From positions 70,804,001-70,868,000 of the forward strand of contig NC_134472.1 in assembly GCF_964194025.1 (NCBI RefSeq): a DNA stretch of 64,000 nt, in the 5' to 3' direction. Source of the stretch: Convolutriloba macropyga (lineage: Eukaryota). Below are positions 1,100 to 44,407 of this stretch, piece by piece (position 1 is the first letter of the stretch; each line of letters starts with the position of its first letter). The notes beneath the pieces are model-generated. The model had not been told where the DNA came from. It searched no databases and saw only the letters and a list, made by a program, of their open reading frames with translations. The position numbers and the translations under genes were made by a program.

Positions 1100-3850
1100 A
1101 CATAATTAGATTTTATTGAAGTTTAACTGGTCACTGTTCATTTGAAGCAGAAGTCACGCCTTGTGCTAGCATTTTGTATAGGAACTGCTGTTGACTCGTC
1201 TATAGAATACTTTTTCATTCGACCTTTGAATACTTGTAAACTTACCCTAATATCTTGCAGATATATTGGTAGTGAGTTTCACTTCAGCGCTACATGATTA
1301 CAGAATGATTTAGAGGAAGAATGAGATGCAATAATCCTCACAAAAATTATTTGGTTAGTGTGTTTGTTAATCTTGTAGCGGGCCGTAGATATTTTAATCT
1401 GTTCATGAAAGTTTCTTTTCATATTCCGGATGTTAGGAAGTAGTACGTCAAAATTTTTAACTCGGTCAGCTGTCTTACACCGATCATATTTTTACGTTCT
1501 TCTTATTCAATTGACGACTTGATACTAGTACGAACAAATACACACTTCATAAAACAATTCATGTATTTCTCTGACAAAAGCAACAAAGTTAAACTGTTTT
1601 GAAAGAGGCATAAATCAGAGTGGTCGACAAAACTAATGGCAAGTGAGTAAAAAAGCATGCATAATACTGTGGTGGGAAATCCATGTTGTACTGTTTCAAT
1701 AGTTGATACCAACAGCCGTTTTTTGCATGATTTTCTTACTTGTAATTGAAAACAAAGTTGACTGCCTATGGGAGCACCTAAAAACTTACACTGGTTTGAT
1801 TTTTTTGACTATTCCTGTTCCAACAACTACATTCTCAGAATCATAGAGCCTGTTATCATTTTTGCGCGTGAACGTAATCAACCAATTTTTTAGCATTAAG
1901 TTTAACCTATTGATACAAATATAAGTTTCCGAAATTTTAAAGATTTCATGCAAAAATTTTAAAGGAATATCGGGTTTTTGGGAATAAGAAACAATAAACA
2001 ATCATCAGCATACTGCAAACGTTTACCAATTTCACGTATTGGCTCTGTGTGTTCAATTATAAATAAGTCGAAAACAAGTGTTCCTATAACAGTCCCTCGT
2101 GGAACATCTTGATTAGATCAAACCAAATAGAAACAACTCAATTAAAGCAAACTTGTTTCAATTAATCCGTAAAAAACATTTTATGACCTGCAATGCAGAG
2201 GTTGATAAACTTTGGGATTTCATTCGTTCGAAAAGATTTAGTGTATTAGTTTGTCGAAAACTTTAGATGAATCGATCAAAACTGCATAAACATTAATACT
2301 ATTTAATATTAACGGTTGGACTGATTCAGTGAAAAATAGAATAGCATCTTGTGCTGTTATCATTGTCCAAATTGAAGCACAAGATGGAAGAACACAGTCA
2401 TTAAGGCATTGATTTACAATGAATGTTAGGTGGGGAATTAAAATTTGCTAACTGTCAGAAAAAGCCCAAGAGGGTACTTTACAAGGACCAGTGGGCTTGC
2501 TGGGATTTCACTCTCTAATGTTGTCAGAAAAAATTTTCTTGATATTGGCCCGACCAACGGCGATTCGCCAACATTGAAACAGTTTGTTTCTTCAGCTTTT
2601 TAACCAAAATACTGTCCAGGGGTTTAAGAATAAAAAATTGAAATATTCTAAAATTTTATGTCGTCAATAATCATATCACCGGAGGAACTTTTTACTGCAG
2701 TCATATTTACAGTTAGCTTTTTGGTAAAGCTTCAGCGCTCTTTAGCAGTACTAAGGAAGGAGAAACAGTTGCAGGAGAACTTCTCCTATTTTTCGTTCAA
2801 TGTACGGGACACTTGGTTTCAAAGCCTACTGTATAGTGACAAATGTTCTGGCGATGAAATCAAACTAAAACTCTCATACGCTGTTTAAAGTTCACGCTGT
2901 ACACTTTTGCATTCCCGGTCAAATCCTGTGTTTTTTTTTCAATATTGGAGTTGTTCTGTATAAAAACACTTTTTTAAGGGGTAGAACTTCTGCACTTGAA
3001 AGATGATGAAAAAGCAAATTAAACAGATCATTGGCGTTTCAACAATTATGCATTTTGAATCAGGGCGTATCTGACAATGATTTTCAAAACAAGCTTTTAT
3101 CAAAGCTGTTCTTATTTAAATTTTTAATATGATGCTCTTTTGTTTTCGAAGGCTTATTTCAGTAAACAATACAGATTCAAGTGGTCGTTTTGGAAATGAC
3201 TGTTAAATACAAAATGTCTATTGTTGGCAATTTTTTTTTGATAAAATGTAATCATTGTGAGTTTTCGCTGTCTTACATACGCGCATAGGTAATATTGGAC
3301 CAGCTACTGTGAAACCGTAGGGTAGAACTCTTGAGTCCATATCTATTTTTGAAAAGATTAAAGTAAACTATGTAATTGTTACCAAATAAAACGGTAAGAC
3401 TGAATAGATTCACAAGTAAGGTTTTCTATATCAGTCAAAAAAGGCTGAAGTAACTCACTCTAATATAAAATGAGGGGGTCGGATGTTGTTTTCAAAAGCA
3501 TTTTAGGACAGCTGTTGTTTGTAAATTTGCGCATATTTGCAACCCACAGTTTTAATTCATTAGGTTTTTCTAGGGCTTGTTCTAAATGCTCAAAAATCAT
3601 TACACCGCCCCTTCCCTTTTTTGGGTTGATTGCACTTATATAACATACAAATATTTCATGATTGTTTGGGGCTATATTCCTTAAAGACCTTTTGAAATCT
3701 GCAGTCAACCAGCTTTCTGAAAAATGCACAACATGCACAATGTTTCTCCTATGCCATCAACAATAAACGTCAATTTCATATAATTTTTTTATACGTTTTT
3801 AAAGTTAATATGAGCAACGCATTGTGAATGTCACACGTATGTAAAAAAGG
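1100..3850 (-). mobile_element. Decayed non-LTR retrotransposon ORF2 (APE endonuclease + RT; CR1/L2-like group)
   Basis: Minus-strand motifs occur in the correct order: endonuclease SESWL and KGRGGV (ORF 3460-3738), RT AVLIDSSKVFD (~2255-2285), DVPRGT (~2090-2110, equivalent to GVPQGS) and QYADD (~2000-2015). Many stops and frameshifts. Confidence 0.8.
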
Positions 3851-4726
3851 GGTGTACTAAAAACCTTGGGTTTCAAGGTCAAAGATTTAGTTTAAATTTT
3901 AATTTTTTACTTGATTAATGACTGACACAATCTTGATAGGTGTCGACATATTGAAATAGACAAAGCTCGGGCTTCGAGCAATACTAACAATTGTGACATA
4001 TCAGTATTTACTTGGTTAATTTACCACGGTGATAGAACCGATATTGTGTACGGGCAAAACTGAGGATAAAACTCACTCATTGGATAATAAACCTACCTTC
4101 AGAGTTAATCACTCAATTAGATCTTCATTTATTTGAAACAATTCTCTTCTGCTTTTATCTACTTATTAATTAAACTTCAATCCTTGTATTTTAAACAAGT
4201 ACCACGCTCGACTACAAAAGATAATACATATTGCGCACGGGCGGCTGCTATAATGGCGACAGAGATTAAAAGTAAATAGAAAACCACCACCCAATAACAT
4301 TGAGCGTTGTACTAATTTCCAAGAGAAATCTATTTTTTGTTTGAAAACCAATTTTTAAACTCGAGTTCGACGTCTTAACATCACGACCCGGAGGTGGAAT
4401 TGTGGACTGCTGTCGGGATTCGAAAACAACAACTGCCATCTTGGAACTATAAAGTGAGTACTCCCTAAAAATTCGAATAGCATAAATCAGGGCGTACATG
4501 TTTTTTTGATAATAAAATAGCGTTCAGAAACATCAGTATTTTATTTTGACTTAATTTGACTTAAACTCAAGCATTAAACCTCGAGTGTTTTTTGCATTTA
4601 TTGACGAGGGAATTAGAGTTTCAATCATATTTAAAAGCTGTTAACTAGAGTGTCGAAAAAAATTTCGAGTTTCGAACAGAATTAGTGAAATATTTTGAAT
4701 AACAACAGCTTTTAAATAAAATAAGG

Positions 4727-5390
4727 ATGGCGCGGCACTCCTCAAAAACGCTGTTACCGGAACCGTTTACTGAATCAAATGATTTTGAAAGTTACATTAC
4801 ACACTTTGAGCTCTTGTCACAACTTCAATAGTGGCAAAGAAAAGAAACAGTAAACGGCGCCGAGACCGAAATTGATGAACGGCCGCATTATTTCGCGTTA
4901 AGGTTACAAAAGTCGGCTATTGATTTCTATCGTACACTTTCGGAGGACACTAGAAAAAGTTATGACGAGACCGTAAAGGCTTTCAGACAACATTATAATG
5001 AGAAACCAGTAGTGTTCCGGGGGAGGCTAGCTAGGAGAGTCCAGCAGCCTGGTGAAAAATTAACAGATTTTCTCGGTGATTTGCAAACTTTAGCCTTGAA
5101 AGCATACCCTCAGGAGTCTAATGAGATAAGAAAACATCTCATTTTGAGAGGATTCCTCGAAGGCATAGAAAATAGTCAGTCAGGTGCGACTCGACCTGAG
5201 AAAGAACTTGGGTGACGCGGATATGACTTTAGACAAAGCTTTAGAAAGAGCACTACACATTGAAGCAGTCACGAAAATTGAGGAGGAGAATAATGAGCCG
5301 CGGGTTTCTGCCATCCAGTCGAATGAAAACACACAACTGGTTAATTCGATTAACGATTTAGTGCAAACACTGCAGTCTAATCAACCCTAA
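4727..5390 (+). pseudogene. gag: Retrotransposon Gag (disrupted)
   Basis: ATG 4727 gives MARHSSKTLLPEPFTESNDFESYITHFELL...RVQQPGEKLTDFLGDLQTLALKAYP...FLEGIEN (retrotransposon gag motif QxxxE). In-frame TAG at 4829, 4-bp AGTC duplication frameshift at ~5175, truncated at ~5388. Confidence 0.85.
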
Positions 5391-7045
5391 ATCAACCTAT
5401 AGTTTACCAAGTGCTGGTACCCTGGGGTAGAGTGTCCAACGTTCTTGAGCTGTTACATGATTCGCCTAGCGCAGGACACTTTGGTATAGAGAAAACGTAC
5501 AAAAGAGCTTGCGAAATGTTTTATTGACCGTGCATGAGAAGGGACGTAAGAAACTGGATAGAAAGCTGTGACGTTTGCCTAAAAAGGAGAGGCACTAAGC
5601 AGAAACATCGGCATTCACTCTCAAAATGGAAACCTAGTCATCCATTTTCGCAAGTATCTCTTGATATCATGGGTCCACTTCCCGAGTCTCAGGGAAACAA
5701 GTACATTTTGCTTATCGGTGATCAATTCAGTAAGTGGTACGAAGCTGTAGCGTTACCCAATCAAGAGGCAAAAACTGTGGCAAAAGCGTTTGTTGAACAC
5801 TGGATAGTAAGATTCGGCTGTCGAGTCAATCTACACAGTGACCAAGGGTCAAACTTCATGTCTAAATTGTTTCGTAGTCTTTGCAGTGAACTAGGAATTC
5901 AGAGGACATCAACCACATCCTACCACCAACAAGGGAACGCGATGATTGAACGAACAAATCGAACAATAGAAGAATGTCTCTCCAAATATATAGGACAATA
6001 CCAACACGAGTGGACTAATTTTCTACCTTTAGCGATGATGGCATATCAATCATCAATTCATAGTGTAACAAGATACAGCCCAGCGTTTGTGGTACTGGGT
6101 TTTCCACTGTCGCTACCTATAGAATGCATCTATAGCACACCACAGACCACAATATATGCAACACCAAGTGACTATGTTTTCACGATGAAACAAAAACTAC
6201 AGGAAACACACCAGTTGATGCGAGAGTATATGGATGTCGAACAAGAACGCCAGAAGTCGTATTATGATCGCAGTAAGTAAGGGCCGTGCTATAAAATTGG
6301 CGAACAAGTGTTAGTTTTCAACCCAACGGTTAAAAAAGGAGAAACAAGAAAATTTACTTCTTTCTATAGAGGACCATACATAACTGTTGAAATTATAAAC
6401 GATTTGAATTTCAAGGTAGAAGATAAAAAGACGAGGAAAGCTATCAAGGTCCATTATGACCGACTAAAGAAATATAAACACGAGAAAAACCATTCACGCC
6501 TGAGCCTCAGGCGAAACGAAAAACAACCAGTAAGGAGCAAAAAAATAGCAATTTGAACAGCTCAGACGATGGTGATATAATTGAAATAGAATCATCAACA
6601 GACAGTAAAAGCAATCTAATTACAGAAAATCAATCCGAAGCTGAGCATGCTAGCGATTCACTAAATGTTACAAATGAAACGCCTGAGAATGAAGCTAAAG
6701 AATCAGAGCAAGAAACCTCTAAAGGGCAAGAGAAGGCACAAAATGTATGTTCCCGAGGGTGGAGGTGCAACTTCATCAAAAGCCAGCGAGTACACTGAAA
6801 AAAAATCAGCAGAAACAAAAATTCCAAAAACAGAAAAAAAACAGGAATCTAGTAGTAAAACAAAAAGTACTGAAGAAAAGATTAATAGTAATGCCAGGGC
6901 ACCAAAAATGGCTACAAGGTCTGACAGTCGATTAAAATCGGTGCCTGAGAGATTAAAAAATTACTTTACTGTGCAAGATGAGGAGTACTTTAGCAGCCAG
7001 GAAACTGATGATGTTTTTGTTTCAGGAAAATCCAGAAAGAAATAA
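5390..7045 (+). pseudogene. pol: Pol C-terminal part: gypsy integrase with GPY/F domain and a charged low-complexity tail (disrupted)
   Basis: HHCC finger LHDSPSAGHFGIEKTY...FY*PCMRRDVRNWIESCDVC; DDE triad SLDIMGP / HSDQGSNF / MIERTN; YRGPY...VHYDRLKKY. Stops at 5525 and 6278; inferred frameshifts at ~6478 and ~6745. Confidence 0.9.
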
Positions 7046-9045
7046 TGGAATCGAAAAGAAAGACGAGTTCTTCTGGAGCATCGTGTGATGGAATATCACT
7101 ATGTTTGCATCTGGCATTGCTAGCCGTTTTTGCTTCTCCTTCACTTTGTATTAAATTATACGGCTATGATTTTGACAATATCGTATCAACAAAAATATAT
7201 TCTTTGGATTACAGTACAAACTGTGATAACAAAATTCGAGTATCGAAAACAATAGAAGAAGGTAGTTTGATATATGCTGAGGTTCAGCCCAAGATAAAAT
7301 TAAGATTTTGCATGTATGAAGCGGCATATACTGTGTCTGCACTTAAAAAGAGCAATGTATATGACGATGTTGCCTTTATTACCAAAAACTCAAGACTCTT
7401 AAAATCCATATATCCATTAAACGAAGGAACCTGTAGGAGCATTTGGCAAAACAAAAACTTTGCTTTACCAGGTTTTGGAGATAAAACCTTTAAAGTCAAC
7501 AATTTAGTAACGGAAAAGATTTTACAACGAGCAAGTGAAACTACGTATGCCGAGGAGCATAGCCAGAGCTTCATGAAAAAAAATAATCGTGAAGGTGCTA
7601 TGTATGCTGAGCCTGTAGAGTGGGTTTCACCTACAGGAGTAAAACTTTTTGGAAATGTGATGATCAATGCAAAACTTTACATCGGAACAATTTGGGGAAA
7701 GCTGATACAAAGAAACCTCTTAAGCTTTAAGGATCCCCTAGGTTTCTCGAAAACTGTTTTTATCAAAAACACATATTTTGAAGACGATTTAGTAAACTAT
7801 TTTTTTGAAAATCGAGGTGAGCAAACATGTCAAACGATCAAACACTTTAATAAGGAGGACCACGTAAAAATTTTTGGTAACAACAAGACCACTTTTATCA
7901 GCGGAAAAATATTACACAAAAACAAATATGAAGATTTTGCATTAGAAATCTTAGAGGAAAAAGCAATTAGTTTGTGTGGACAGCAGGTGAAAACAACCGG
8001 AGTTCCAGGTGTTTTTTACTCCGAGGAAAGTTCAGAACTGAAAACTGGTAATCTTAAAATAACCATGGAAATGTTTCTTTCAAGCGTTGTTGACACCTTG
8101 AATTTCGAACTTCTCAAGGAGAGAGAAATTTTTTTTGGGAAAATTAGAACACTCCAATGCGAGATTCAACGACTAAAAATTCAAACTATGATTGAAATAT
8201 CAAAAAACATTGTTAGTCCATCGGTAACGCTCTTCGAGAAAGGAACTCACGTCGAAAGAGCAGGATCTGTGTTAGATGTTCATAAATGTGCAAAGATGGT
8301 AGCAACAATAACTAAACTTCCTTTTTGCACAGAAGAAGTTCCTGTGTTAGTAGAGGGTCAGAATTTTTCTTCTATTAGATATATGGACCCTATTAAAAAA
8401 ATTTTGTATCATAATTATACAATCGCTGCATTCAACCCGCTGTACCCAAATGTTGTGAAATTAGAAGACGGCAGTTTTCAACAATATGGAGAAACGCTGA
8501 AGAAATTCAATCGTGAGGTATATCAGTGGTCGATGAATAATAACTTAAAAGTAAGTGATGAAAACCTGCATCGCAGCCTTTTCTCCATATCAGACGTAAA
8601 ACAAAGTCAAATTGCTCGAACAATTCGCCATAATAGTAAAGGAATTATCAGTCGGGAAGCATTCCGAGATTCGGATGGAAAATACAGTCATGAAAATTTT
8701 ATTCATTGGAACGCTCAGTTCCAAAAACAATTTTTTCTAACAAATGAAATAACAATTTTTCGTAACTTAAAAATTGAAAGCTTATACGTTTGGTTAAAAG
8801 CTAAGGATATTGCTGTGTCAGTCTTAACAGTCTACCTCATATTCCAAGTTGTGAAAAATTTTCCTAAATTGTTCATCTATTTAGGATTAGTCATTAATGG
8901 AGCCTCCTGGCAACAAGTGTTGCGGAATCTCGACCCTGTAACGGGAACACGTATGTATAATCAACTACTCAAATTAATTAATGAGCGTCGAGAACAAAAG
9001 AAAATGATTGAAGAGAAAGAGTCCTTGAAAGAGTCGGTTGTGTAA
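7045..9045 (+). CDS. env: Envelope/fusion glycoprotein, chuvirus (Jingchuvirales) glycoprotein-like, 666 aa
   Basis: Uninterrupted ORF directly after pol. It has a signal-peptide-like N-terminal hydrophobic stretch (LCLHLALLAVFASPSLC), a C-terminal TM-like segment (IAVSVLTVYLIFQVV) and NxS/T sequons. Motifs YGYD..SL...C and LQCE...AGSVLDVHKC...CTEEVPV...YMDPIKKIL...NPLYP match my recollection of the chuviral G consensus. Confidence 0.8.
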   Translation: MESKRKTSSSGASCDGISLCLHLALLAVFASPSLCIKLYGYDFDNIVSTKIYSLDYSTNCDNKIRVSKTIEEGSLIYAEVQPKIKLRFCMYEAAYTVSALKKSNVYDDVAFITKNSRLLKSIYPLNEGTCRSIWQNKNFALPGFGDKTFKVNNLVTEKILQRASETTYAEEHSQSFMKKNNREGAMYAEPVEWVSPTGVKLFGNVMINAKLYIGTIWGKLIQRNLLSFKDPLGFSKTVFIKNTYFEDDLVNYFFENRGEQTCQTIKHFNKEDHVKIFGNNKTTFISGKILHKNKYEDFALEILEEKAISLCGQQVKTTGVPGVFYSEESSELKTGNLKITMEMFLSSVVDTLNFELLKEREIFFGKIRTLQCEIQRLKIQTMIEISKNIVSPSVTLFEKGTHVERAGSVLDVHKCAKMVATITKLPFCTEEVPVLVEGQNFSSIRYMDPIKKILYHNYTIAAFNPLYPNVVKLEDGSFQQYGETLKKFNREVYQWSMNNNLKVSDENLHRSLFSISDVKQSQIARTIRHNSKGIISREAFRDSDGKYSHENFIHWNAQFQKQFFLTNEITIFRNLKIESLYVWLKAKDIAVSVLTVYLIFQVVKNFPKLFIYLGLVINGASWQQVLRNLDPVTGTRMYNQLLKLINERREQKKMIEEKESLKESVV

Positions 9046-9270
9046 AAAAAATGAAAATGGGTTGTCTTGAGTTCAAGACCCAAAAAAAAGAATGAAAATG
9101 ACTTGTCTTGAGTTCAGGACGGGAAACAAAATGAAAATGACTTGTCTTGAGTTCAAGACCAAAAAAAAATTAAAATTAGTTGTCTTGAGTTCAAGACCAA
9201 AAAAAATGAAAAAGAGTTGTCTTGAGGTCAAGACAATTAAAAATAAGGGAGAAGTCTTGAGATCAAGACT
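9046..9270. repeat. Array of six 16-bp palindromes GTCTTGA-GN-TCA(A/G)GAC in 35-41 bp A-rich units
   Basis: Copies start at 9064, 9105, 9144, 9182, 9219 and 9254. GTCTTGA and TCAAGAC are reverse complements; copy 2 has one mismatch. Confidence 0.95.
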
Positions 9271-9351
9271 GAAAATATTGAGAAACTTTAGAAGCAAAAA
9301 TGGTGTTTATTAAACATAGCAGGCAGTGAGACCCCACAAATTGGTGAATAT

Positions 9352-10218
9352 GTGTACTATATGCCAGAGTTGTGGAAAGTTATTTCGGAGATTTCCCCGG
9401 GAGTGTACCGAGTGGAATATTGTCTGTCAAGGACTCGGAAGGTGTCTACACTAGAACCTCTGGCACCAGCCAATATTCGGTCCCGAGCTCTGCAGACTGA
9501 AGTGGAACTGCAAAGCCAGTGCGCGCAGTTAGAGAAATTGAAGAGTACAAACTCTTTACTCCAAAAAGATCTTGTCGAGCTTCGACAACAACTAGACAGA
9601 CATTGCGACAAAGCCAAAGAGGCAACAAGAGAAGCATTGGGAAAACTGAGCGCCGAGTGTGGGGCGCTAAGAGATAACCTAAAGGCGGCGGCAGCTAGAA
9701 ATGCCGAACAAGAGCAGTCAATCGACTTACTTAAGCAGGAGTTGGCCGATCTAAAAGTCAATACTGATAAAAAGAGCGAAGCCCTGGAGAAAATGGAGAA
9801 AGAGAATGACCAATTGAGGTCAGAGCTTCAGCAGTTGGAAAACTATAACCAGTACTTGGCGAGTGAGTGCCGAAGGAAAGACACTACAATTGATAGACAA
9901 AAGCATTCTTTGAAGAACGAGAGAGCCAAAACGAAGGCCACAGAGAAGTGTTTATTCGAGGTTCGAATTAAAAATGTACTGAATTGGCCTGCGACATTGT
10001 ACGAGATTTTGTTGGTAAAAAGTTCTGCTTCAAAAGATCAGATCAAAAAACACTACCACAAAATGAGCTTGTTGACTCACCCTGATGCTAGTGGAGATGA
10101 GGAGTTTTTCAAGATCATTAATCGAGCATACCAAATACTGATGAACGATGGGGCGCGAGAAGCGTACAACAATTTCGGGCTGGACGAGGCAGAGAAACTC
10201 ATGAATGACGAAAAATGA
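9352..10218 (+). CDS. Coiled-coil protein with C-terminal DnaJ/Hsp40 J-domain (element-borne accessory gene)
   Basis: Long heptad-rich central region followed by TLYEILLVKSSASKDQIKKHYHKMSLLTHPDASGDEEFFKIINRAYQILMNDGAREAYNNFG, a canonical J-domain with HPD. First in-frame ATG is 9361; the frame is open from 9292. Confidence 0.85.
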   Translation: MYYMPELWKVISEISPGVYRVEYCLSRTRKVSTLEPLAPANIRSRALQTEVELQSQCAQLEKLKSTNSLLQKDLVELRQQLDRHCDKAKEATREALGKLSAECGALRDNLKAAAARNAEQEQSIDLLKQELADLKVNTDKKSEALEKMEKENDQLRSELQQLENYNQYLASECRRKDTTIDRQKHSLKNERAKTKATEKCLFEVRIKNVLNWPATLYEILLVKSSASKDQIKKHYHKMSLLTHPDASGDEEFFKIINRAYQILMNDGAREAYNNFGLDEAEKLMNDEK

Positions 10219-10334
10219 TACCTAAACTTTTTATATGAAAAGTACAAACTTTTTGTAATTTAAAACGCTTATGTATCGAGAGCTGTAAAATTTGTTTGAT
10301 TTTATATGAGTGAGTGGCACACTCTATTCTTATT

Positions 10335-10350
10335 GAGAGGGGGCAGTGTG
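10335..10350 (+). promoter_or_regulatory. Polypurine tract and probable start of the 3' LTR (TGT at 10347)
   Basis: GAGAGGGGGCAG|TGTGAG, ~120 bp after the J-ORF stop; a typical gypsy PPT/LTR junction. Confidence 0.65.
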
Positions 10351-10499
10351 AGTGTTTTTTTCCTCGAATTTTCTTTGTATTCAGTTTCTGGGCCCGGATT
10401 TCGCTCGACTTCACCACGGTTGTTCAAAAATAGTTCAGCAAACAAAAAAAAACGTCAATGCGCAAACTGATGTGTCAGAAAAATTCTTACATACGACAG

Positions 10500-10944: not shown

Positions 10945-11305
10945 ACTGAACACAGGGACTCCACAGCAGAGGAACGCTTTTTTCCATTTCCTGGACAACA
11001 CAGAAAAATAGGATGGGCCTTGTGAAGAAATTTTTGGGGATGATTGTCGGCACCCAGTTGTTTGTCCAAATGTTGCAGCCATTCCCATCAAGCCCCGGGC
11101 ATATAAATTTTTCAGCATCACAGTTTCAACATCTGGGAGCCGACAGTGTTACTTTTTTAACATCAGCATCACAGTTTTCAGCATCGAGGTGCGGACATTC
11201 ATCCCCAAAATTTTTTTCCGAAGGCGTTCTTATGTTTCTGTGTTGTCCAGGAACAGTAAAAAAGCGTTGCTTTGCTGTTTAGGCCCGGAGAGGAATTTCA
11301 GTTCG
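10945..11305. mobile_element. MITE / foldback element with ~100 bp imperfect TIRs
   Basis: 10963-11060 (ACAGCAGAGGAACGCTTTTTT..TTCCTGGACAACACAGAAA..TTTTGGGGATGA) is the imperfect reverse complement of ~11180-11278. There are internal CAGCATCACAGTTT repeats. Confidence 0.75.
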
Positions 11306-11329: not shown

Positions 11330-11850
11330 AAACTGTGATGCTTAAAAAGCTTCTCTTTTTAATAAATATCTCCTCAGTTTTCTCCTTTTCATTAATGACT
11401 TTCATTATATCTCTTAATAAATATCTCTGTTCATTATTCTCACTTTCTTTACCTGAAACTCCAAAGTCTTTCTTTTTGCTGACGACCTTAAACTATTATA
11501 TAATGAAAATCTTGGAAACGCACACAGAATCAAACAAGATCGAGATACAATGTTGCGTTAGAGTTACGTAAATATCATCAGCTTCAATTTATCGAAATGT
11601 CAGTAAATTTCAATATCAAGTCGAGACTAAGCCCGGTGTTGGGTCAATGGTCGCTTGAACAATCGAGAACTGTGGAGGACCTTGGAATCACTATGAACGA
11701 CAGCTTCACTTGGAAGGAACATGTAGAATTGCGGACTCGTAAAGCCAATAAATTCTTCCACCAAATTAAAAGAAACATCAAATTTCCTGACGGTTACTAC
11801 AAAACTAAATCTATATAAGAGTACGCTTATTCCAATCTTAATTTATAGAT
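11330..11850 (+). mobile_element. LINE RT fragment (CR1-like)
   Basis: FLLFINDF, FADDLK and EDLGITMNDSFTWKEHV motifs across broken frames. Confidence 0.75.
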
Positions 11851-12166: not shown

Positions 12167-12610
12167 ATGAGTCAACCTCAGAGCGCCAACGTAGTCCAAG
12201 TGTTCGGTAGAAAGAAGACGGCAACTGCTGTTGCTCACTGCAAGGATGGCAGTGGAATGATTCGAGTCAATGGACGACCTCTTGACATGGTGGAACCCCG
12301 ATGCATGCAACTTAAACTGTTGGAGCCAATCCGACTGTTAACTTCAGTTTCTCTGTACCCTAAAGTTGACATTCGAGTTCGCGTCAACGGCGGAGGACAA
12401 GTTTCAAAGATTTATGCCGTCCGTCAAGCAATTGGAAAAGCACTTGTCGCTTACACTGGGAAAGTGGCTGATGAAAATAAGAAACAGATGGTACGAAAGC
12501 AGTTGATCATGTACGACAAAACGCTCTTGGTTGCTGATCCTCGAAGAAGAGAGCCCAAGAAATTCGGCGGTCCAGGTGCCCGTGCCAGATACCAGAAGAG
12601 TTACCGTTAA
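12167..12610 (+). CDS. RPS16: 40S ribosomal protein S16 (uS9)
   Basis: [17 protein letters not shown]...[11 protein letters not shown]...[24 protein letters not shown]; complete 147-aa ORF with no CDS intron. Confidence 0.97.
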
Positions 12611-15559: not shown

Positions 15560-18500
15560 TGTGGTATCAGAGGCCGGATTTTGTTTGGGTAGCTCCAGTT
15601 ACCGGGGATTTTAGATTCCGGCGGAAGATTTTACGGGAGATTTATCTACAATTCAATATTTGATATCAAGCATTTGGCGCTAGAGTGCTCCGCGTCTGCT
15701 TGATTGATTCGATTCCCTACATTTTTGGCCATACTAAATATTTTTTCGGAGCCAAACATTTGATGTGAGTGTTCTCCACATTTGTTTGACTAATTAGTCT
15801 AGGCCCCTAGCGGCCACTTCCCTTATTCCCTCTTTTCCCAAGTTACGTTGGTGCACCCACCACCGCCGCCACCTCCCGAACCTCTCTGCAATATTTGTAA
15901 CGAGCCTTGCAATGTACAAGTGAGCGCATTTTGTGTCAAATGTAAGAAAATATGTCACTTTGGTTGTCTGGGAATTTCAAGTACGGCAAATATCAAAGGA
16001 ATGATCTACTGGTCATGTACTGGTTGTACTCCTATATTTACTGCAGAACTATCTGAGCTGGACAGAACTACGGCTGTTGAGAAAAAGCTCGATTGTGTTG
16101 ATTCTCTGATCTGCGAGGTGACTACTACGCAATGATATAGCGTTGATAAAGAAACTCCATTTCCCTTTCCTAAAAGCTGCCAAAAGATGACCTGCCAGGA
16201 ATCGAAGAATCGAAACGACAGCTCATCCAGTTATCAGAGTGCGACAGTAAACAAAAAGAGAAATGCGGATGAAATTGAATTTGAAACTGTACCGAGAGAA
16301 GGAGGTAAAAACTGGAACGAACACCAATCCAGCAGTCATCATGGGTGTAAAAAACCCCCGAAGCATCGTCATTTATATGTAGGTCGATTGAGTTAGAACA
16401 TAACAGCATCACAAATAGAGGAGTACTGTGCAGAAAATAAGGTTGAACTACTTCATTTTCGCCAAATTTCGAAGTCAGAAGCTCACCTGAAAGCTTTTCA
16501 TTGGATAATTAAGTTTGATGAGGAGAAATTAGAGTTACCTGATTTCTGGCCGGAAAACGTTACTTTGTCAAGATTTTACCTGATTGAAGCCGCCCGTGAT
16601 TGGTTAGAAACAGTGGATCAAAAATGACCACTAGCCATTCCTCAATTTAAACAAAGGACGAAACAAAGATCTACAGAACTAAACATTTGTCTACATAATG
16701 TTCGCTCTATCAGGAACAAAACAAAGGATGTATGTAAATGCCCTCTTAGAAGTAAATGAAATTAGTTTTGGAGTATTTATAGAATTGTGGATTACGAATA
16801 ACTCAAATGACGATGTTATTCTAAAGCAGTGCTGTCCCCCAGGATTTTTTTCTATAGTGCAACAAGGTTAATGAAAGAGGAGGCTGAATTTGCCTCTTTT
16901 ACAGACGTAATCTCAATTTGGAAAATTTTGAAAAGTTTGCCTCTGAATTTTTCGAATGCTGCTATGCCTCTTTAACTGTTGTGACTACCACTTATTTAGT
17001 AATCGCTGTTTTTCGACAACCTGTGTTAAATGTTGAATCTTTCATTGATCATCGTTATCTTTGAAGAAAAAAGGCTACAATTCGACAAGATTGTTATCAT
17101 GGGTGATTTTAAGGTTTCACTAAATGTAATTAACGATGCATCATTTGACTATATTTTAGCGTCAAACAATGTCTCAATGAATGTTAAATCGAATAGCTTC
17201 ATTACTTCTTCGGACCATTCGTTTATTTGCTTCTTGCTCAGCAATATGACACAACGCAAATCGCAACACCAGTTGATGTACTGAAGGTTTTAATAAGTTA
17301 TTGAAGCCGTGCTTAAAATTTGATTTTGCCTCCAGTTTTGCTGAAGCATGGGCTATGTATCTAAGGTCTGAGGAGATTTTTGATGATTTTCTAAGGTTTG
17401 ATCATTTTGAATTCCGTTCTACCTCTCAAAATAAAAACATTTACTAAACGTCAATGCCCATTTTTTGACAACGAGATTTTAAGTTTGAAATAAGAGAAAA
17501 GAAAAGCAGAGCGTAAATATAGGAAATCGAAAACATCTGTACTAAAATCTGAAAATGAAAATGTTACCCATATGTATTTTGAAAAATTCTAAGAAGCGTA
17601 GATTATACATTGAGAATGCGTTGATGGAAAATTGTAGCCGTAAAAGGTTGCCACCTTAAAATTGCTTCTTGGTCAAAATGTAAAACAGCTCGCAAAATTT
17701 GTAAAAAAAACAGCTTGCAAACGATTTCAACAAGTTCTTTATATCTTAAGTGGAAACTATGATTGCATCGATTCCCACTGCCATTTGTCCTGAAATTCTG
17801 AAGGCTGAAGTTAGCTCAATGAGTTCGTTCAAAGAGTTGTCGATAAGTCAGTTAAGAGATTCGATTTTGGCGTCGTCAAACAGTACATCTGCACTGGAAA
17901 TCATTCCCACATTTTGTAAAGTCATTTCCAGACTTTTTTCTCGACTTTCTGAAGTTTATTAATCTTTCGCTGAAGGCGGGATATTTTCCTCAGTCCTTTC
18001 AAATGGCAATTGTTAAACCCCGCGCGAAGGAAGCAAATTCTCATAGTGAAGATTTTTCAAACTATCGACCTATCTCAAACCCGTTACATTTCAAAACTAT
18101 TGAACGCGCGGCTTTTATGCAAATGCGAGAGCACTTTAAAAAGATTAATCTATTTAGTCAATACCAAATTGCCTACAGGAAGTTTTTTCATGAATTTCTT
18201 CTTTCGATTCTTGAAACAAGTTTGGTTTGCAAAGATAAAGTGCTTAGCTTTTTAAATAGTTATCTGATTGGTAGATCTCAAAAAGTGTTGATTGATGGTG
18301 AATATTCGATGGCAAGAACTATTAAAACGGGTGTTCCTCAAGGATCTGTTCTAGGTCCTGTTCTCTTTTCATGCTATCTTGTTCCTCTTGAAGTTCTGTT
18401 TGAACGTCTTGATGTCAATTATCATTTTTATGCCGATGACACTTATCTATTTTATTTACCATGCTTCGATAAATCAGGGGTCTTTTGGTTTGATACTTTG

Positions 18501-19308
18501 CAAAAGTGTTTCAGTAGTGCTAAGCTCCGATTAAGCTCGAATAAAACTGAGTTCTTGTTTATTAGTAGAAAGAATAGTTAAATAGCGATATTGAACTTCC
18601 AGCTGTCGTCAATTTTTCTAATAATGTTACTTTGTTGGGCTTCAACTTAGATTCCCGACTTTCATATACAAAACCAGTTAGTTCTGAGCGTCGTAGATGC
18701 TCAGAACTGAGTTAGTTCTGAGCGTCGTAGATGCTTTTTACGAAAAATTTATTCCATCAGAGATACAGTCGACAGAAATTCGTTGATCGAGTTAGTTTGG
18801 GTAATGATTCTCTCGCTACTAGATTACTGCAACTCACTGTACTATGGACTACCTGCGTATACTATAGATATTACAGCGTATAATGAACCCAGCGTGTCGT
18901 GTCATTTTTAGGCTATCGCCTTGTTCACCAACAGCAAATAATATCAAAGAGCTTTATTGGCTACCCATGAAACAGCGAGTCCCCTACAAAATTCTACTTT
19001 TTGGTGACCGTTTGGTTCACCATCCGTGGAAATTTCCCGTATCTTGGCGCATTAGATTTTCCAAATGATAAGGTGACTGGATGCCAATATGCGTACAATC
19101 TGAAGGTTCCTAATGTCAGGACTGGATTTAGACAAAGATCATTCAGTTTTGCAGTTCCTTTTAAATGGAATATGTTGCCTTTTGAAATGAAACTGATGCC
19201 CCATGAGTTTGATTATCGGAAAAAACTGAATTTTTTTTAATCTTTGATTTTGAAAGAACTTTTGAGTTTGTAAATGGTGCGTAAACCTAAATTATAATAA
19301 TAATAATT
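15560..19308 (+). mobile_element. Near full-length decayed L2-clade LINE (ORF1 with PHD finger; ORF2 APE-RT; (TAA)n tail)
   Basis: PHD finger CNIC..CVKC..HFGC..WSCTGC (15848-16135). Endonuclease HNVRSIRNK, MGDF and SDH. RT NYRPIS, GVPQGSVLGP and FYADDT. L2-type LDYCNSLYYGLP and LYWLPMKQR. TAATAATAATAA at ~19295-19306. The 5' end is approximate. Confidence 0.9.
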
Positions 19309-20742: not shown

Positions 20743-21238
20743 GTCAATTGCCGACTTCTTAAACCTTTGGCTCATTTTTTTTAAATCTGGGAGTCAGATT
20801 TTATACAGCATCTACTTTATTAATTTAACCTAAAGCCATAGGAATATTGGAGGTTTTATAAAGTTACTTTTCTGTATGATAGCTCCCGAACGCCTTTAAT
20901 TTCGATTTACAATATCAGGAAATATTTTCAGTAAAATAATATCATTGTTGACTGGTGAAATTTACTACTGGGGTTTTAGATTTGAATTTGCTGTTTTATG
21001 AAAAGTTGACAGATTTTTTTTGGTATTTATTATTGTATTGTAGACGCATGGTTTATGACTCTCAATTTCAAATCATGTATTTGGAGTGGAGTTGGGATGC
21101 CTTCAAGTTGCATGCCCACTAAGTTGACCCGGGGGGGGGGGGGGGTAGTTGACATCATTTGGCATTATATTGAGGAATCGTTTGGCAGTGGCCGGATATT
21201 ATCAGTGTTTTATTCGCGGTGGCCGCCGTATTGGCCGA

Positions 21239-21595
21239 CAGGGCGTTTAGCCGACAACCAAAAAATGAGAAATTTAACCGACAATTTAAGTAAAATGAGC
21301 AATAAAACTTATTGTGAAGCTGTGATTGGCCAATTTAAAACACTATTTCGTAAGCGGACAAATATACCGCAGTTTTTTCAACTACTGTAACGAAGGTCTA
21401 TCCGTGGTCGGACCGTATTTTACCGCATCTGGCCATGCCTCGCGGGCCATGGCCATGCCTCAGCGGCCCGTGGGACTTGATATGAATCTATCACAACCGA
21501 ACTACTGTTTTATGGCCCAATGAGTCTTTTATGACCAATTATGATAAAACTGTCGGCTAAATTTCTCATTTTTTCCTTGTCGGCTAAACGCCCTG
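21239..21595. mobile_element. MITE with ~45 bp TIRs (CAGGG ends, Tc1/mariner-like)
   Basis: CAGGGCGTTTAGCCGACAA..AAAAAATGAGAAATTTA at the left end is the reverse complement of TAAATTTCTCATTTTTT..TTGTCGGCTAAACGCCCTG at the right end; TA follows the right end. Confidence 0.8.
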
Positions 21596-21701
21596 TAGGC
21601 CAATTTTGCTAGCACTTTTATTCACTGATTGCCCAAGAAACGTCGCACAGCACAGTATTAAAAATGTTATGCTCTATGAGGAAATACTGAAAATGTTTCA
21701 G

Positions 21702-25019: not shown

Positions 25020-25525
25020 TTAACAGGAGGTGCATAATGAGTTTTTCCGAGGAGGTCTTGACAATCTGCGGAGCTTGAAACCGGGAGTTGCATTTCTGTT
25101 TGCCTCTTTAGCCAGTACCATGTCAGCAACACTCTCGAAAAGATCCTTTACGCCCTCGCCAGTTTTCGCTGATGTTTGGAAACTTCTGTGGTATATAGAA
25201 CCGGATATTTGCTCGAGTGTTCGTGTCTGTATTCGTTTCATGTCGCATTTGTTGGCAACCAGAACGAAAACGGTGTCGTCGGGAACTATTTCTTCAGCCT
25301 TTTGCTTCCACTGGTCAAGAACTGACATGGATTTGTCATCGTTGATTGCAAATACGATTATGACTGCGTCTGCAAATCTGAAATTGACAGAGGGTACAGT
25401 TGATACGTCGCATTGTTGCCCACTTAATGTCCACAAATTCAAGTCCATCCGAGTTTTGTTTCGGATAATCCTCTTAACGCAGAAGTCGCTGCCGAGAGTG
25501 GCAACGTAGGTTTCGTTGAAGCGAC
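25020..25525 (-). CDS. Rab-like small GTPase, exon 2 (nested antisense in EBP2 intron 2)
   Basis: TTTCAG|GRFNETYVATLGSDF...LNLWTLSGQQ...VANKCD...TSAKTGEGV...LCTSC*; phase matches exon 1. Confidence 0.88.
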
Positions 25526-25811
25526 CTGAAAAAAAAGCTGATTAAGTTATCCACGAGTAATTCGGATCATTGGTTATTAACTCCTGTTGTTTGAGCAGAA
25601 TTATAAAAGTCGCATTTCGACATGATACGTCCTGCCGCTAAAATAGGATCATCTTTAACTGATATTTTTACACATTTTAAGAGTGGTAAATATAATATAA
25701 TATAATGGCTGTTCCTAATTCGGAAATGAAAAATTTTGATCTCGTTGGGAAGGAAAACAATTCCAAAAACATTCTTGGATAGCAGAACAAATGTTTTTGA
25801 TGTTCACCTAC

Positions 25812-38877: not shown

Positions 38878-41800
38878 ATTTTTTCACGTTGAATTCATAT
38901 TTACGGAATTTGTGTTTTTGTAAGATGAGTACTGATGTAAAGAGGAGTAATGGCTTCCAAACTGTTTAGCTACTCCTGAACGAAGTTAGCACCTATTACT
39001 GTAAACGTATGTCTTTTTTGCAGTTTTAGTTCGACCGTTGTTTGCTCTTTTGTTCTAGAACATTTTTTGATTTCAATTTTTGAATGATTTTCGACGTTGA
39101 GTTTCCTGATTTTTGAATGACCTATATTGCACTTGTTCAGAAATTACCTCGTTGCTAAGACAAAGCCGATTGTAAGATAAGTAGTCACAAAGCACTGGTA
39201 GCCCAGTGGTTAATGTTGCACTCTACAAGTCGCGGTATCAAATCATTCTCTAGTCGGATTTTTTTGCACTCATAATGGGAAATTTATCTAGACTACAATC
39301 CTTCTGAATTGAATTGCGGGGTTTTGCATTCCAGAGCAAATTGTCTGACGTTATTGGGTTTATGGTTTCAAATAACTGCAAGACATCTTGTTTTTGACTT
39401 TGTCTTGTTTCTTGCGTCAGAAGGTGAAAGTTATTTTGAGAAGCTTTTCAGGAGATCAGAAGGTGACAAGATTTCCGCGAGAACAGAGCAGTAAAGAGAA
39501 TAAAACCCCAATTTTTCAAAAGAAAAATAAATTAAAACCTTCAAAAGACCACGAGTTCCAAATTTTGAGTGGGTTTGTTCTCAATCACGTGCGGCCATTG
39601 GGCACAACTGTCTGTCATAACATTGATAGTCGGGTAATCTATTCATGTATTTTTCAGGGTATCCATTTGGGACCTGTCGTACAAATTTTTTGAGATCTGA
39701 TTTCAGATTAGCTACTATGTTTCTGAGATCTGATTCGTTCCGATTGAGTAAACAGTGCCATTGAGGTTAGATGCTGGCAAACTGTAAACCAAACGAATTT
39801 TTTTTTCTAAAAACTATTATATTTGGTTTTGTTGCTTGTTTAAAAAATTTTTCAAATGACATTTCAATAGTCTATTGGAATTTGCAGCTTTTAAACGTTT
39901 TCTTCTGACTTTTTCTCAATTTCTTTTCTTATTGGTAGCAATGACAAAGTAATTCAAACTGGAAACAAAAACTTTGATTGAGTGGCAGTCTCCAAGTGCT
40001 CTGGTTGCAAATTCCTTGCTTAATTTAAAGCGCTTTTTGTTCAGCTTTTTGTCTAATGTGTTTAATTTTGTTTTGATCAAATTTGTTTAATGAGTTCTGT
40101 GAAAAAATAGGTTTTACTAAAATGATGTTTTCCAGTGTAAATTTGACTTTTAACGGTTTTGCCACAACTTGTTCTGTTGAACTACGAGCGAGTTTTTCAA
40201 TTTTGCGAGCTACCTTTTTTTTCAATTTCAATTTCTTTTGAGAAGTAGCAAAAAATTATCTGTTTCACAAAATCTGACAGTGCAATCTATTACTGAGTCT
40301 TTTAAATGAGAAACTTGATTTTAAGTGTTTGAGGGGTTCAGTTTGGAGCGAGATATTTTTTGTTCTCTTCGTTTGTTTAAAACTTTTAATTTCATTTTCA
40401 GTCTTTTCTTTTGTTTTTCTGTCATTTGTTCCTCTTCATTAATTTTTCACCAAAATTGTAGTAATTTTCCTTAAGAAATGATTATTGAATGTCACCGGTT
40501 GATTGGCATTTATTGGTTGAGCTATGTAAATGGTTGAGCTAATGTAAATGACAATACGGTTTCTGTAAGAAAATAGTTTGATTTTTATTATTATTATTTT
40601 CTTTCATTTACTTTTTCTAACTCTGTCTCTAAAGTCTCATGTTTGATTGACTTCAAATGATTTTGCGTGATAAAAAAGATGGTGATTTAGTTAGGTTAAA
40701 ATTCTGTATGACTTATACAGCGTTGGAATTTTGGAAACATTTATACTCTATTATTTTTGTACGGTTTTCCCCGCAAAAGATCAATGACAGATAGTTCCAA
40801 ATCAATTTTTTATGCCTGGATTACCAGTCATGGATTATTCCTCAACTCATAATTCATGCAAAAATGAAATATGAAATTTGTTTGCTTTGAGAACTCATCG
40901 CCGGTAAGCAGTTAACTTTGCATGCTTCTGAATTTGTTTTTATATAACCCTTTAATCGAACTCACGTTTGACTTTTATATACAGTTCTTCTAAAAAAACT
41001 CATATTAATGGAATTCAAATAATGACGCACTTTTCAACAGTTCAAGCTGCTCTGATAATTTGCGTCAAATTTTGTTTCTTAAAAAATATACAGAGAAACA
41101 GGTTCTTGATTTTATTAATGAAAGAAAGGCTGCTTTTTCTTTCGCAATTTTTTATCGTAATGCAATAATAGTTGAACATTTGGCAGAATTTTACAAGATG
41201 GTTGAAATTCAACGCATTCTCTGAACTCTAAATTTCTCCACAAAAACTATCCATTTTTTTGTACCAGCCACATATTGTCACATATTTATAAGAGTCAATA
41301 ATTTGTAGTTTTTCATGGGCAAAATTTAGAGGGAACATTTGCCGAAGTCACAATTTAACAAACGAAATTAATATTTTGCTGCTGATAACCTATTGTCTTT
41401 AATCTTTTATTCAAACTAATTCGTTTTCTAAAACTTAACTCTACTTTTATTCTTACAAGGTAATGATTCATACAATATGCGTTATTTCAATCACAAATTT
41501 TAGTAAATGAGGTTTTTGCTTGAAGCCAATAAATTTGCCAATGAAAAAGGTATTGTTTTGAAGTTCTATTGTCAATTTTTCTGTAATTCTACCTAATAAA
41601 ATTGTATCGTTTTCCAATGTTTGTGCCTTTTTTTTACGTTTGCGGAGCGTACATAATACGTGCAAGCAGTTTTGTTTTCAATTGTTTTGTTTAGCAGTTT
41701 CAGGATCAAGAGTATCAAAATCATTTTTACTTAATTTGCTATTAAAGAGAAACTGAAACCTCAAACTAACCCTCATTTTCTCGAAAATCTTGTGTTTTCT

Positions 41801-44407
41801 AGTCATCATCTCATATTCTGTTTAATTTAGCACTTTTTCAGGCGCATTGCTGAGTGCTCCGTGGGTCTAAAGCTTTTTTCACGTTGAATTTAAAATTGTT
41901 GAATTTGTGCTCTGGTAAAGGGAGTATTGATGTAAAGAGGAGTTAACTTTGTCATGTTTCTTGAGTCAGAAGGTGAAAGCTATTTTGAGATGCTTTTCAG
42001 GAGATCAGAAGGTGACAAGATTTCCGCGAGAACAGAGCAAAAAGAGAAAAAAACCCCAATTTTTCGAAAGAAAAATAAATTAAAACCTTCAAAATACCAC
42101 GAGTTCCAAATTTTGAGTGGGTTTGTTCTCAATCAAGTACGGCCATTGGGCACAACTGTCTGTCATAAAGTTGGTAGTCGGGTAATCTATTCATGTATTT
42201 TTCAGGGTATCCATTTGGGACCTGTCGTACAAATTTTCTGAGATCTGATTTCAGATTAGCTGCTATGTTTCTGAGATCTGATTTGTTCCGATAGAGCAAA
42301 CAATGCCATTAAAGTTAGAAGCTGGCAAACTGTAAACCAAACGAAACTTTTTTTCTAAAAACTATTATATTTGGTTTTGTTGCTTATTTAACAAATTTTT
42401 CAAATGACATTTCAATAGTCTATTGGAATTTGCAGCTTTTAAACGTTTTCATCTGACTTTTTCTCAATTTCTTTTCTTATTGGTAGCAATGACAAAGCAA
42501 ATCAAACTAGAAAGAAAAACTTTGATTGAGTGGCAGTCTCCAAGTGCTCTGGTTGCGAATTCCTTGCTTAATTTTAAGCGCTTTTTGTTCAGCTTTTTGT
42601 CTAATGCGTTTAATTTTGTTTTTATCAAATTTGTTTAATGAGTTCTGTGAAAAATTAGGTTTTGCTAAAACGATGTTTTCCAGTGTAAATTTGATTTTTA
42701 AAGGTTTTGCCACAACTTGTTCTGTTGCAATACGATCGAGTTTTTCAGTTTTGCGAGCTACCTTTTTTTAATTTCAATTTCTTTTTAGAAGTAGCAAAAA
42801 ATTATCTGTTTCACAAAATCTGACAGTGCAATCTATGACTGAGTCTTTTAAATGAGAAACTTGATTTTAAGTTTTTCAGGGGTTCAGTTTGGAGCGAGAT
42901 ATTTTTTGTTCTCTTCGTTTGTTTAAAACTTTTAATTTCATTTTCAGTTTTTTCTTTTGTGTTTCTGTCATTTGTTCCTCTTCATTAATTTTTAACCAAA
43001 TTTGTAGTAATTTTCCTTAGGAAATGATTATTGAATGTCACCTGTTGATTGGCATTTATTGGTTGAGCTAATATAAATGACACTACGGTTTCTCTAAGAA
43101 AATAGTTTGATTTTTATTATTATTTTTTTCTTTCATTTACTTTTTTTTACTCTGTCTCTAAAGTCTCATGTTTGATTGACTTCAAATGATTTTGCGTGAT
43201 AAAAAAGATGGTGATTTACTTAGGTTAAAATTCTGTATGACTTATACAGCGTTGGAATTTTGGAAACATTTATACTCTATTATTTTTGTACGGTTTTCCC
43301 CGCAAAAGATCAATGACAGATAGTTCCAAATCAATTTTTTATGCCTGGATTACCAGTCATGGATTATTCCTCAACTCATAATTCATGCAAAAATGAAATA
43401 TGAAATTTGTTTGCTTTGAGAACTCATCGCCGGTAAGCAGTTAACTTTGCATGCTTCTGAATTTGTTTTTATATAACCCTTTAATCGAACTCACGTTTGC
43501 CTTTTATATACAGTTCTTCTAAAAAAACTCATATTAATGGAATTCAAATAATGATGCACTTTTCAACAGTTCAAGCTGCTCTGATAATTTGCGTCAAATT
43601 TTGTTTCTTAAAAAATATACAGAGAAACAGCTTCTGGATTTTATTAATGAAAGAAAAGCTGCATTTCCTTTCGCAATTTTTTATCGTAATGCAATATTAG
43701 TTGAACATTTGGCAGAATTTTACAAGATGGTTGAAATTCAACGCATTCTCTGACTTCTAAATTTCTCCACAAAAACTGTTCATTTTTTTGTACCAGCCAC
43801 ATATTGTCACATATTTATAAGAGTCAATAATTCGTAGTTTTTCATGGGCAAAATTGAGAGGGAACATTTGTCGAAGTCACAATTTAACAACCGAAATTAA
43901 TATTTTGCTGCTGATAACCTATTGTTTTTAATCTATTAATCAAACCAATTGGTTTTCTAGAACTTAATTCTACATTTATTCTTACAAAGTACTGATTCAT
44001 ACAATATGCGTTATTTCAATCACAAATTTTAGTAAATGAGGTTTTGGCTTGAAGCCAATAAATTTGCTAATAAAAAAGGTATTGTTTTGAAGTTCTATTG
44101 TCAATTTTTCTGTAATTCTATCTAAAAAAATTGTATCGTTTTCCAATGTTTGTGCCTTTTTTTTACGTTTGCGGAGCGTACTTAATACGTCCAAGCAGTT
44201 TTGTTTTCAATTGTTTTGTTTAGCAGTTTCAGGATCAAGAGTATCAAAATCATTTTTACTTAGTTTGCTATTAAAGAGAAACTGAAACCTCAAACTAACC
44301 CTCACTTTCTCGAAAACCTGTGTTTTCTAGTAATCTCAAATTCTTTTTATTTTTGCACGTTTAGACTCATTCAGGCGCATTGCTGAGTGCTCCGTGGGTC
44401 TAAAGCT
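38878..44407. repeat. Tandem duplication of a ~2.5 kb unit
   Basis: Unit 1 is 38878-41875 (with an extra ~450 bp at 38950-39395) and unit 2 is 41876-44407. Near-identical ORF pairs are 40968/43497, 41468/43997 and 39388/41954. Both units end GCTGAGTGCTCCGTGGGTCTAAAGCT. Confidence 0.95.

Follow-up and report, generated by a model that had tools for sequence, protein, structure and literature searches.

The usual picture of an enveloped Ty3/gypsy element shows three genes, gag, pol and env. We describe a fourth, ORF4, kept by two deeply split families of such elements and found in a 64,000-nucleotide stretch of the Convolutriloba macropyga genome (assembly GCF_964194025.1, NC_134472.1:70,804,001-70,868,000, forward strand; "the window", to which all positions are relative). 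The element itself is of a known kind. The "ancient" errantiviruses with an envelope of the herpes simplex virus (HSV)/glycoprotein B (gB) type (Chary and Hayashi, PMC13524379), as portrayed in the accessible text of that paper, likewise have the Ty3/gypsy pol order, a zinc-knuckle gag, a chuvirus/gB-like env after pol, a tRNA-Ser primer site and many similar copies. The likeness is one of gene order, profiles and envelope family; to these features our element adds a further conserved gene, placed after env and before the polypurine tract. According to the same text, the survey pipeline of PMC13524379 sought gag, pol and env only; that text does not mention DnaJ, J-domains or chaperones, nor do its supplements mention DnaJ. 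Surveys keyed to those three genes can overlook genes behind env.

An extra non-core gene near the 3′ long terminal repeat (LTR) is also present in the bdelloid ORF3 types (PMC5408684) and in Cer1 of C. elegans, whose CERV protein is soluble, multimeric and made by splicing (PMC10309623). As described in the available sections of these papers, such genes occupy the position of env and code for esterases, exonucleases, dUTPase or, in CERV, domains of its own, whereas ORF4 is additional to env and carries a J-domain. Neither DnaJ nor Tudor occurs as a term in PMC5408684 or PMC6338049. No J-domain gene was found in an LTR element in the literature searched, which took in neither most subscription journals nor Repbase.

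Linkage of ORF4 to an enveloped element

ORF4 is a real, old and selected gene, carried by a multicopy, env-carrying Ty3/gypsy (Metaviridae) element with the order LTR-gag-pol-env-ORF4-polypurine tract-LTR (Table 1). A protein search of the genome with ORF4 gave 130 matches, a lower bound obtained from 128 scored of 2674 candidates. An LTR lies downstream of the gene at all 29 other top loci, where similarity to the window runs to about position 10355 and then passes into the sequence of 3823-4252. Forty ten-kb loci were selected for an ORF4 match, half of them close (20) and half divergent (20); 37 of these have env upstream, 29 integrase and 27 gag, and an LTR follows in 38. The linkage holds in the reverse direction, with an ORF4 match 0.6-2.6 kb downstream in at least 53 of the best 60 of 150 env matches.

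A DnaJ family search of the genome revealed another repeated J-domain. Twenty loci were fetched for it; two proved to be host genes and 18 belong to a second element family, with env upstream of the J-domain frame in 17 and pol in 16. The two families are 79% identical in reverse transcriptase (RT), and integrase and env give 64% and about 30%; within ORF4 the N-terminal barrel is 46% and the J-domain 37% identical, and the helices between are unalignable. Second-family ORF4 has its own ATG about 25 nt past the env stop.

The original prediction, made from the window sequence, proposed that the element carries an accessory gene in its 3′ slot, and suggested that the copies of this gene be counted. 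The 130 matches, the LTR-bounded loci and the same slot in a second family bear this out, and the copies are tied to the element. It also named the alternative, a single-copy host DNAJC orthologue. We looked for this and found a gene that is multicopy, linked to LTRs rather than outside mobile elements, under selection, and apart from host J-domains instead of grouping with a host family. That ORF4 is an old accessory gene of an envelope-carrying Ty3/gypsy lineage is virtually certain.

Further proteins with the ORF4 architecture, from public assemblies, occur at 25-41% identity in the representative library. Two of these, P0100 (best match in the C. macropyga genome about 50%) and P0115 (34% over the full length, 43% over the J region), lack a close match in this genome and therefore come from other organisms. 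The outside homologues are presumably tied to retroelements; in viral and metagenome contigs nothing was confirmed about their genomic context. The ESM Atlas gave no lead (best scores 0.78 and 0.80), and profile and region searches yielded no more full-length relatives carrying names. The named top rows from BFVD matched in the J-domain alone, and were DnaJ proteins of phages and giant viruses.

Purifying selection

Net divergence was computed between 12 copies of a younger subfamily (A) and 11 of an older group (B). The net ratio of nonsynonymous to synonymous divergence (dN/dS) for ORF4 is 0.093 (95% interval 0.06-0.14). By part of the protein it is lowest in the J-domain (0.034), then the barrel (0.057) and the helix (0.126); elsewhere in the element gag has 0.010, integrase 0.092 and env 0.127. 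The 14 codons that precede the first ATG give 0.026, with dS saturated. Raw values between subgroups of the second family are 0.19-0.31 for ORF4 and 0.12-0.17 for its J-domain. Comparison of young with old A copies gave 0.29 (interval 0.07-1.07), which is too shallow to exclude 1. The His-Pro-Asp (HPD) motif is retained in 33 of 36 close, young J-domain copies and in 12 of 21 divergent ones, and is invariant in an 11-row alignment of divergent members. Selection on ORF4 is as strong as on env and integrase, which makes these elements "complex" in the sense of the lentivirus accessory genes.

Both the linkage and the selection bear on the idea that ORF4 has no function for the element, being either an adjacent host DNAJ gene or a captured fragment carried passively. 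In most copies of the window family no in-frame Met stands ahead of the conserved block, and 18 of the first 32 J-domain residues of the window are identical to a host class A-like exon, an identity that counts against a clean separation from host J-domains, yet unrelated J-domains also score 18-19. Matches number 130 inside LTR-bounded elements, purifying selection acts in two families, and the J-domains form one clade apart from those of the host assembly. Linkage and selection refute this explanation, and we find it hardly credible.

Two compositional observations concern the same genes. In each of the two families the third-position GC content of ORF4 (0.49-0.51) exceeds that of env and pol (0.32-0.38). 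Subfamilies A and B have a net synonymous divergence of 0.75 in ORF4, compared with 0.18-0.21 in the gag, integrase and env genes, and their LTRs share 74-81%; lineages may have swapped the ORF4-LTR end as one module.

Protein architecture and proposed function

ORF4 is an open frame of 308 codons, and its position was correctly foreseen: it is intronless, in the sense orientation, and ends about 115 nt 5′ of the polypurine tract. The frame is open throughout its predicted extent, but its left end does not hold as a coding start. It runs from stop to stop, the first in-frame ATG is codon 24 (9361), and the first strand of the barrel precedes that ATG.

Residues 236-293 fit the DnaJ profile of Pfam (PF00226) with E 1.2e-16 and 61 bits, the cut-off being 27.8, and the HPD motif is intact at residues 263-265. 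The AlphaFold2 model, built from a 17-row alignment, has a mean predicted local distance difference test score (pLDDT) of 88.6 and a predicted template modelling score of 0.34. It consists of four N-terminal strands, one 163-residue helix and a J-domain with HPD between helices II and III; the Sis1 J-domain matches it with a template modelling score of 0.80 (by target length). Pfam and AlphaFold2 therefore agree with the predicted beta-rich N-terminus, long helix and C-terminal J-domain with HPD. The predicted coiled coil is a probable reading of the long helix in a monomer model; there is a modest heptad bias, with 53% hydrophobic residues in the a/d positions and 33% overall, and helix length differs among homologues. 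No signal peptide or membrane helix is present (top 19-residue hydropathy 0.8). The J-domain is C-terminal, and Pfam gave neither a DnaJ_C nor a zinc-finger match, so that the layout is not that of a class A or B Hsp40; by architecture ORF4 is a class C J-protein.

We propose that ORF4 acts as a soluble adaptor. The barrel would dock on a target, the long helix would space or dimerise the protein, and the C-terminal J-domain would stimulate host Hsp70 at the docked site. From its fold, its HPD motif and the selection on it, the J-domain is probably a working Hsp70 activator. The likeliest target would be the element's own RNA-protein complex, that is, genomic RNA with Gag/Pol, where local Hsp70 activity could help the particle to assemble, RT to become active, or the particle to uncoat once Env has mediated entry. 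We put the probability that Hsp70 is directed to this complex at roughly 0.45.

The barrel folded alone gave a pLDDT of 79.7. Its structural matches include a PWWP domain (Z 7.8, root-mean-square deviation (rmsd) 8.1, 63 residues aligned), the KOW pair of DSIF (7.3, 2.4, 52) and the Tudor domain of PHF19 (7.3, 1.6, 50), followed by the Tudor domains of SMN (Z 6.8), TDRD3 (6.7), TDRD1 (6.2) and Krimper (6.1). The top rows have Z 6-7.8, many of them with an rmsd of 1.2-3 over 45-55 residues. The modelled fold class, an SH3-like barrel, is clear, and the rows are tied across Tudor, KOW and PWWP; no structural match reached Z 8, Foldseek gave nothing under E 0.001 and Pfam nothing at E up to 1. 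Conservation covers, among other residues, a Tyr-Tyr-x-x-Glu start as well as Arg/Lys in the last strands (3-4), with two Arg among the nearly invariant columns. Such basic residues would suit nucleic-acid binding.

The Tudor domains in this list (PHF19, SMN, TDRD3, TDRD1 and Krimper), with which weak Foldseek rows agree, would also suit an anti-silencing adaptor. Its barrel would mimic a Tudor domain or chromatin reader and dock on a PIWI/Tudor granule or heterochromatin factor, and its J-domain would send Hsp70 to dismantle the complex. There are precedents, in the available text of the papers concerned, in the J-domain proteins that act in plant silencing (SILENZIO, PMC8616336) and in SV40 T antigen, which takes apart Rb-E2F (PMC7356129). 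The barrel, however, has the Tyr-Tyr-x-x-Glu start and basic residues without a full aromatic cage (judged by eye, against Tudor cage positions), and it is under strong purifying selection (0.057) with no sign of an arms race at this resolution. This function is the chief competitor of the one proposed above, and we regard it as doubtful. A broader version, in which an enveloped Ty3/gypsy lineage across several animal species encodes an Hsp70-targeting counter-defence like polyomavirus T antigen, with a reader-like barrel on the small-RNA or chromatin silencing machinery and a J-domain possibly of non-animal or viral origin, seems rather unlikely to us.

Origin of the J-domain

The tree comprised 45 J-domains: nine of element type, 15 from the host assembly and 21 others. 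The element-type sequences form one group (support 99/98), which persisted in a quick tree with three partial host rows added, two of them class A-like (Shimodaira-Hasegawa approximate likelihood-ratio test 90). They lie on a long branch (0.82). From HPD to the helix III Phe the spacing is seven residues in 10 of 10 element-type rows and 10-14 in the 14 measurable of 18 host rows. Fourteen of 17 outside rows, which we take to be protist, giant-virus, phage or bacterial proteins, also have seven; they were picked by similarity to the query.

The phylogeny suggested in the original prediction thus sets an element clade apart from the host J-domains, and no donor emerged from it. We claim none, because the deep nodes of the tree are weak and the short-loop neighbours were chosen by query similarity. 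A recent capture of a host DNAJ gene, after the manner of pestivirus Jiv, had been implied and is not supported: the gene is old, common to deeply split families, and groups with no sampled host-assembly J-domain. Loci L079, L080 and L124 lie on small contigs with a GC content of 0.52-0.61, compared with about 0.36 for the chromosome-scale loci, and are probably another organism's DNA in the assembly; two "host" J-domain rows on GC-rich small contigs may also be from another organism.

The long branch, and departures from canonical J-domains around helix II and before HPD, would be expected if the domain were a decoy that bound Hsp70 or host J-protein partners without productive cycling and so damped a host chaperone pathway, e.g. 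small-RNA loading. Invariance of HPD, the helix III Phe and the helix IV motif, together with a J-domain dN/dS of 0.034, argues against such a decoy, which we consider very unlikely.

Expression and the repeat array

A T-rich tract and AG precede the conserved block of ORF4 in phase 1; in the second family an AG stands at the corresponding position and in that phase too, and the leaders of both families retain a site resembling a donor. Homologues of ORF4 begin with Met just ahead of the constrained 14-codon block. The leader of young copies offers no start codon in the matching phase; in one copy there are sixteen phase-compatible donors behind an ATG, none singled out by the data. From these signals we lean towards production of ORF4 from a spliced subgenomic RNA. 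Genomic copies with an exact leader-to-ORF4 or leader-to-env junction gave 0 matches each, which is evidence neither way, and 15 joints of 272 in four runs of contigs, which behaved like DNA, had no GT..AG skip. We discarded the possibility that translation starts at the primer-binding site, because most copies have no start codon there. Translation of the repeat leader as a general rule was judged unlikely; among 35 copies the spacer lengths fall in the three frames 12, 13 and 10 times.

Between env and ORF4 the window family, unlike the second, has a tandem array. Its unit is a 16-nt near-palindrome in A-rich linkers, present 2-19 times in 35 copies. The palindrome arms co-vary: 191 of 227 units have T-A, 19 have C-G, six have T-G and 11 are unpaired. 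The C-G class may be explicable by one inherited change, and no match was found in Rfam.

This array brings in a regulator resembling Rev or CERV. ORF4, made from fully spliced RNA, would bind a repeated RNA element that only unspliced and env RNAs retain. It would promote the export or the translation of these RNAs, and Hsp70 would recycle the complex. The array follows the env stop and precedes the candidate acceptor of ORF4 and would therefore be removed by splicing from the ORF4 message only; its arms vary together (216 of 227 units paired), KOW domains match the barrel (Z 7.3), and, according to the available text of PMC10309623, export of genomic RNA requires CERV, an accessory protein made by splicing. 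Against this, the second family has ORF4 and no array, with only about 25 nt between env and ATG; the palindromes are equally possible as DNA sites; and the single-event explanation of the C-G variant and the lack of an Rfam match tell the same way. Such a regulator is clearly unlikely.

Assessment of the proposed function

Delivery of Hsp70 to the element's own RNA-protein complex has analogous precedents: the Hsp70 system activates hepadnaviral RT, and SV40 T carries a J-domain (PMC7356129, available text). ORF4 points to a concrete host pathway, Hsp70, and would reveal which cellular help such an element requires besides its own gag, pol and env, be it with the particle, with the RNA or against silencing.

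Several points weigh against this reading. The ORF4 frame is fully open in only 14 of the 40 loci, and within groups its dN/dS is 0.6-0.8, as expected of decay after insertion. There is no in-frame Met upstream of the conserved block in 27 of 35 copies (eight have one within the spacer) and the first in-frame ATG comes after one in another frame, so that any route of translation is hypothetical. The barrel is equally close to PWWP, KOW and Tudor domains (Z 7.8, 7.3 and 7.3), and RNA binding is therefore only putative. To our knowledge Gypsy elements generally replicate without a gene of this type, so that ORF4 answers no universal need. Its expression, target and biochemistry are all putative.

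Other features of the region

The copy in the window is a broken, defective element (Table 1). It has no RT; in another copy the pol order is protease-RT-RNase H-integrase, with RT_RNaseH, Integrase_H2C2 and rve profiles. The env product scores 28.5 bits with PF24664 (cut-off 27) in the window and 41.6 and 52.7 bits in other copies, all three env frames scanned passing. Repeat scans found no LTR pair in the window, because the 3′ LTR of this copy is cut after 9 nt; elsewhere, 18 younger LTR pairs are 92-99.8% identical and four older ones 79-89%. The polypurine tract directly adjoins the LTR start. An exact 4-bp target-site duplication was seen by eye in nine of 14 copies with both ends readable.

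ARAGORN called tRNA-Ser(GCT) in both loci scanned. Fifty matches to the end of this tRNA are clustered within 100 kb (G000:C10:2701272-2801477), two of them confirmed as tRNA genes. After some LTRs (L036, L041 and L064) the primer-site sequence runs on for about 18 nt as in the tRNA, which suggests copied primer ends. In L004, L006, L010, L011, L051, L056 and G000:C2746 the end of env recurs in tandem with ORF4 and the LTR, or ORF4 recurs alone, at a spacing of 1.1-2.6 kb.

Table 1. Coordinates in the window of the features of the element that carries ORF4
Feature	Position	Strand	Evidence
5′ LTR, ~430 nt	3823..4252	+	Same sequence after ORF4 and polypurine tract at 29/29 other loci; paired LTRs in other copies
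Primer-binding site fitting the 3′ end of tRNA-Ser(GCT)	4254..4266	+	Pattern at 54 genomic places; ARAGORN
Candidate 5′ splice donor in leader, GT at 4454	4451..4459	+	Kept in most copies, both subfamilies
gag, broken (stop, frameshift, 3′ part deleted)	4727..5386	+	Weak Retrotrans_gag match; zinc knuckle in another copy
Internal deletion junction, ~2.9 kb gone (gag end, protease, RT, RNase H)	5386..5402	.	Other copies hold ~2.9 kb between
Integrase and pol tail, with stops and frameshifts	5402..7045	+	rve E 4.5e-14, Integrase_H2C2, Integrase_p58_C
Candidate splice acceptor for env, AG	7024-7025	+	Acceptor motif
env, 666 amino acids from ATG, hydrophobic leader, class III (gB/chuvirus-like) fusion-protein family	7045..9045	+	PF24664 Monjiviricetes_fusion
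Tandem array, 6 units of 35-41 nt	9044..9282	+	Between env and ORF4
ORF4, stop-to-stop frame; conserved coding from ~9319; first in-frame ATG 9361	9292..10218	+	Frame, DnaJ match, genome matches, selection, second family
T-rich tract and AG, candidate ORF4 splice acceptor, phase 1	9305..9319	+	Both subfamilies
Predicted N-terminal SH3-like beta-barrel (Tudor/KOW/PWWP class)	9319..9480	+	Models, structural matches Z 6-7.8
Long helix, probable coiled-coil stalk	9484..9972	+	Helix 56-218 of model
J-domain, HPD at 10078-10086	9997..10170	+	PF00226; Sis1 J-domain structural match
3′ motif common to second family (10308-10324) and polypurine tract (10335-10346)	10308..10346	+	
3′ LTR stub, 9 nt; remainder gone in window copy	10347..10355	+	Other copies run on into LTR past 10355

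Shortly past the cut 3′ LTR there is an inverted repeat resembling a miniature inverted-repeat transposable element (10955-11286; 84-nt arms, 77%), with a similar pair at 21230-21604. An intronless, open ribosomal protein S9/S16 gene (12167-12610, E 1.2e-35) lies 1.8 kb from the element, and a Ras-family GTPase frame at 25020-25541 on the minus strand (E 1.8e-23) is overlapped by an antisense open frame. The window also holds an RT fragment (RVT_1, 17856-18581), a short frame at 11507-11818 that resembles a non-LTR element tail, and a tandem duplication at 38879-43359 (spacing about 2.5 kb, 82-98% identical). A 687-codon frame without a Pfam match (52303-54366), bracketed by an inverted repeat, and a 220-codon helical frame (58370-59032) resemble the PX and BAR parts of a sorting nexin.

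Comparison with known J-domain proteins

Polyomavirus T antigen, as described in the available text of PMC7356129, is likewise a virus-encoded J-domain joined to a targeting module and serves as the model for aiming Hsp70 at a chosen complex. Unlike ORF4, it belongs to a DNA virus and has an N-terminal J-domain, an Rb-binding motif and a helicase; we claim likeness for the J fold only. The pestivirus Jiv/DNAJC14 inserts are J-protein-derived; viruses have acquired them sporadically and recently from a host gene that can be recognised, and their active part is reportedly not the J-domain. Both they and ORF4 place sequence of J-protein type in a viral-type genome, but ORF4 is fixed, old and without an identified donor. 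The best sequence and structure matches of its J-domain, helix IV included, are the class A and B Hsp40 proteins (Sis1, DNAJA1, DNAJB8), from which ORF4 differs in carrying the J-domain at the C-terminus and in having no G/F region, zinc finger or client-binding domain.
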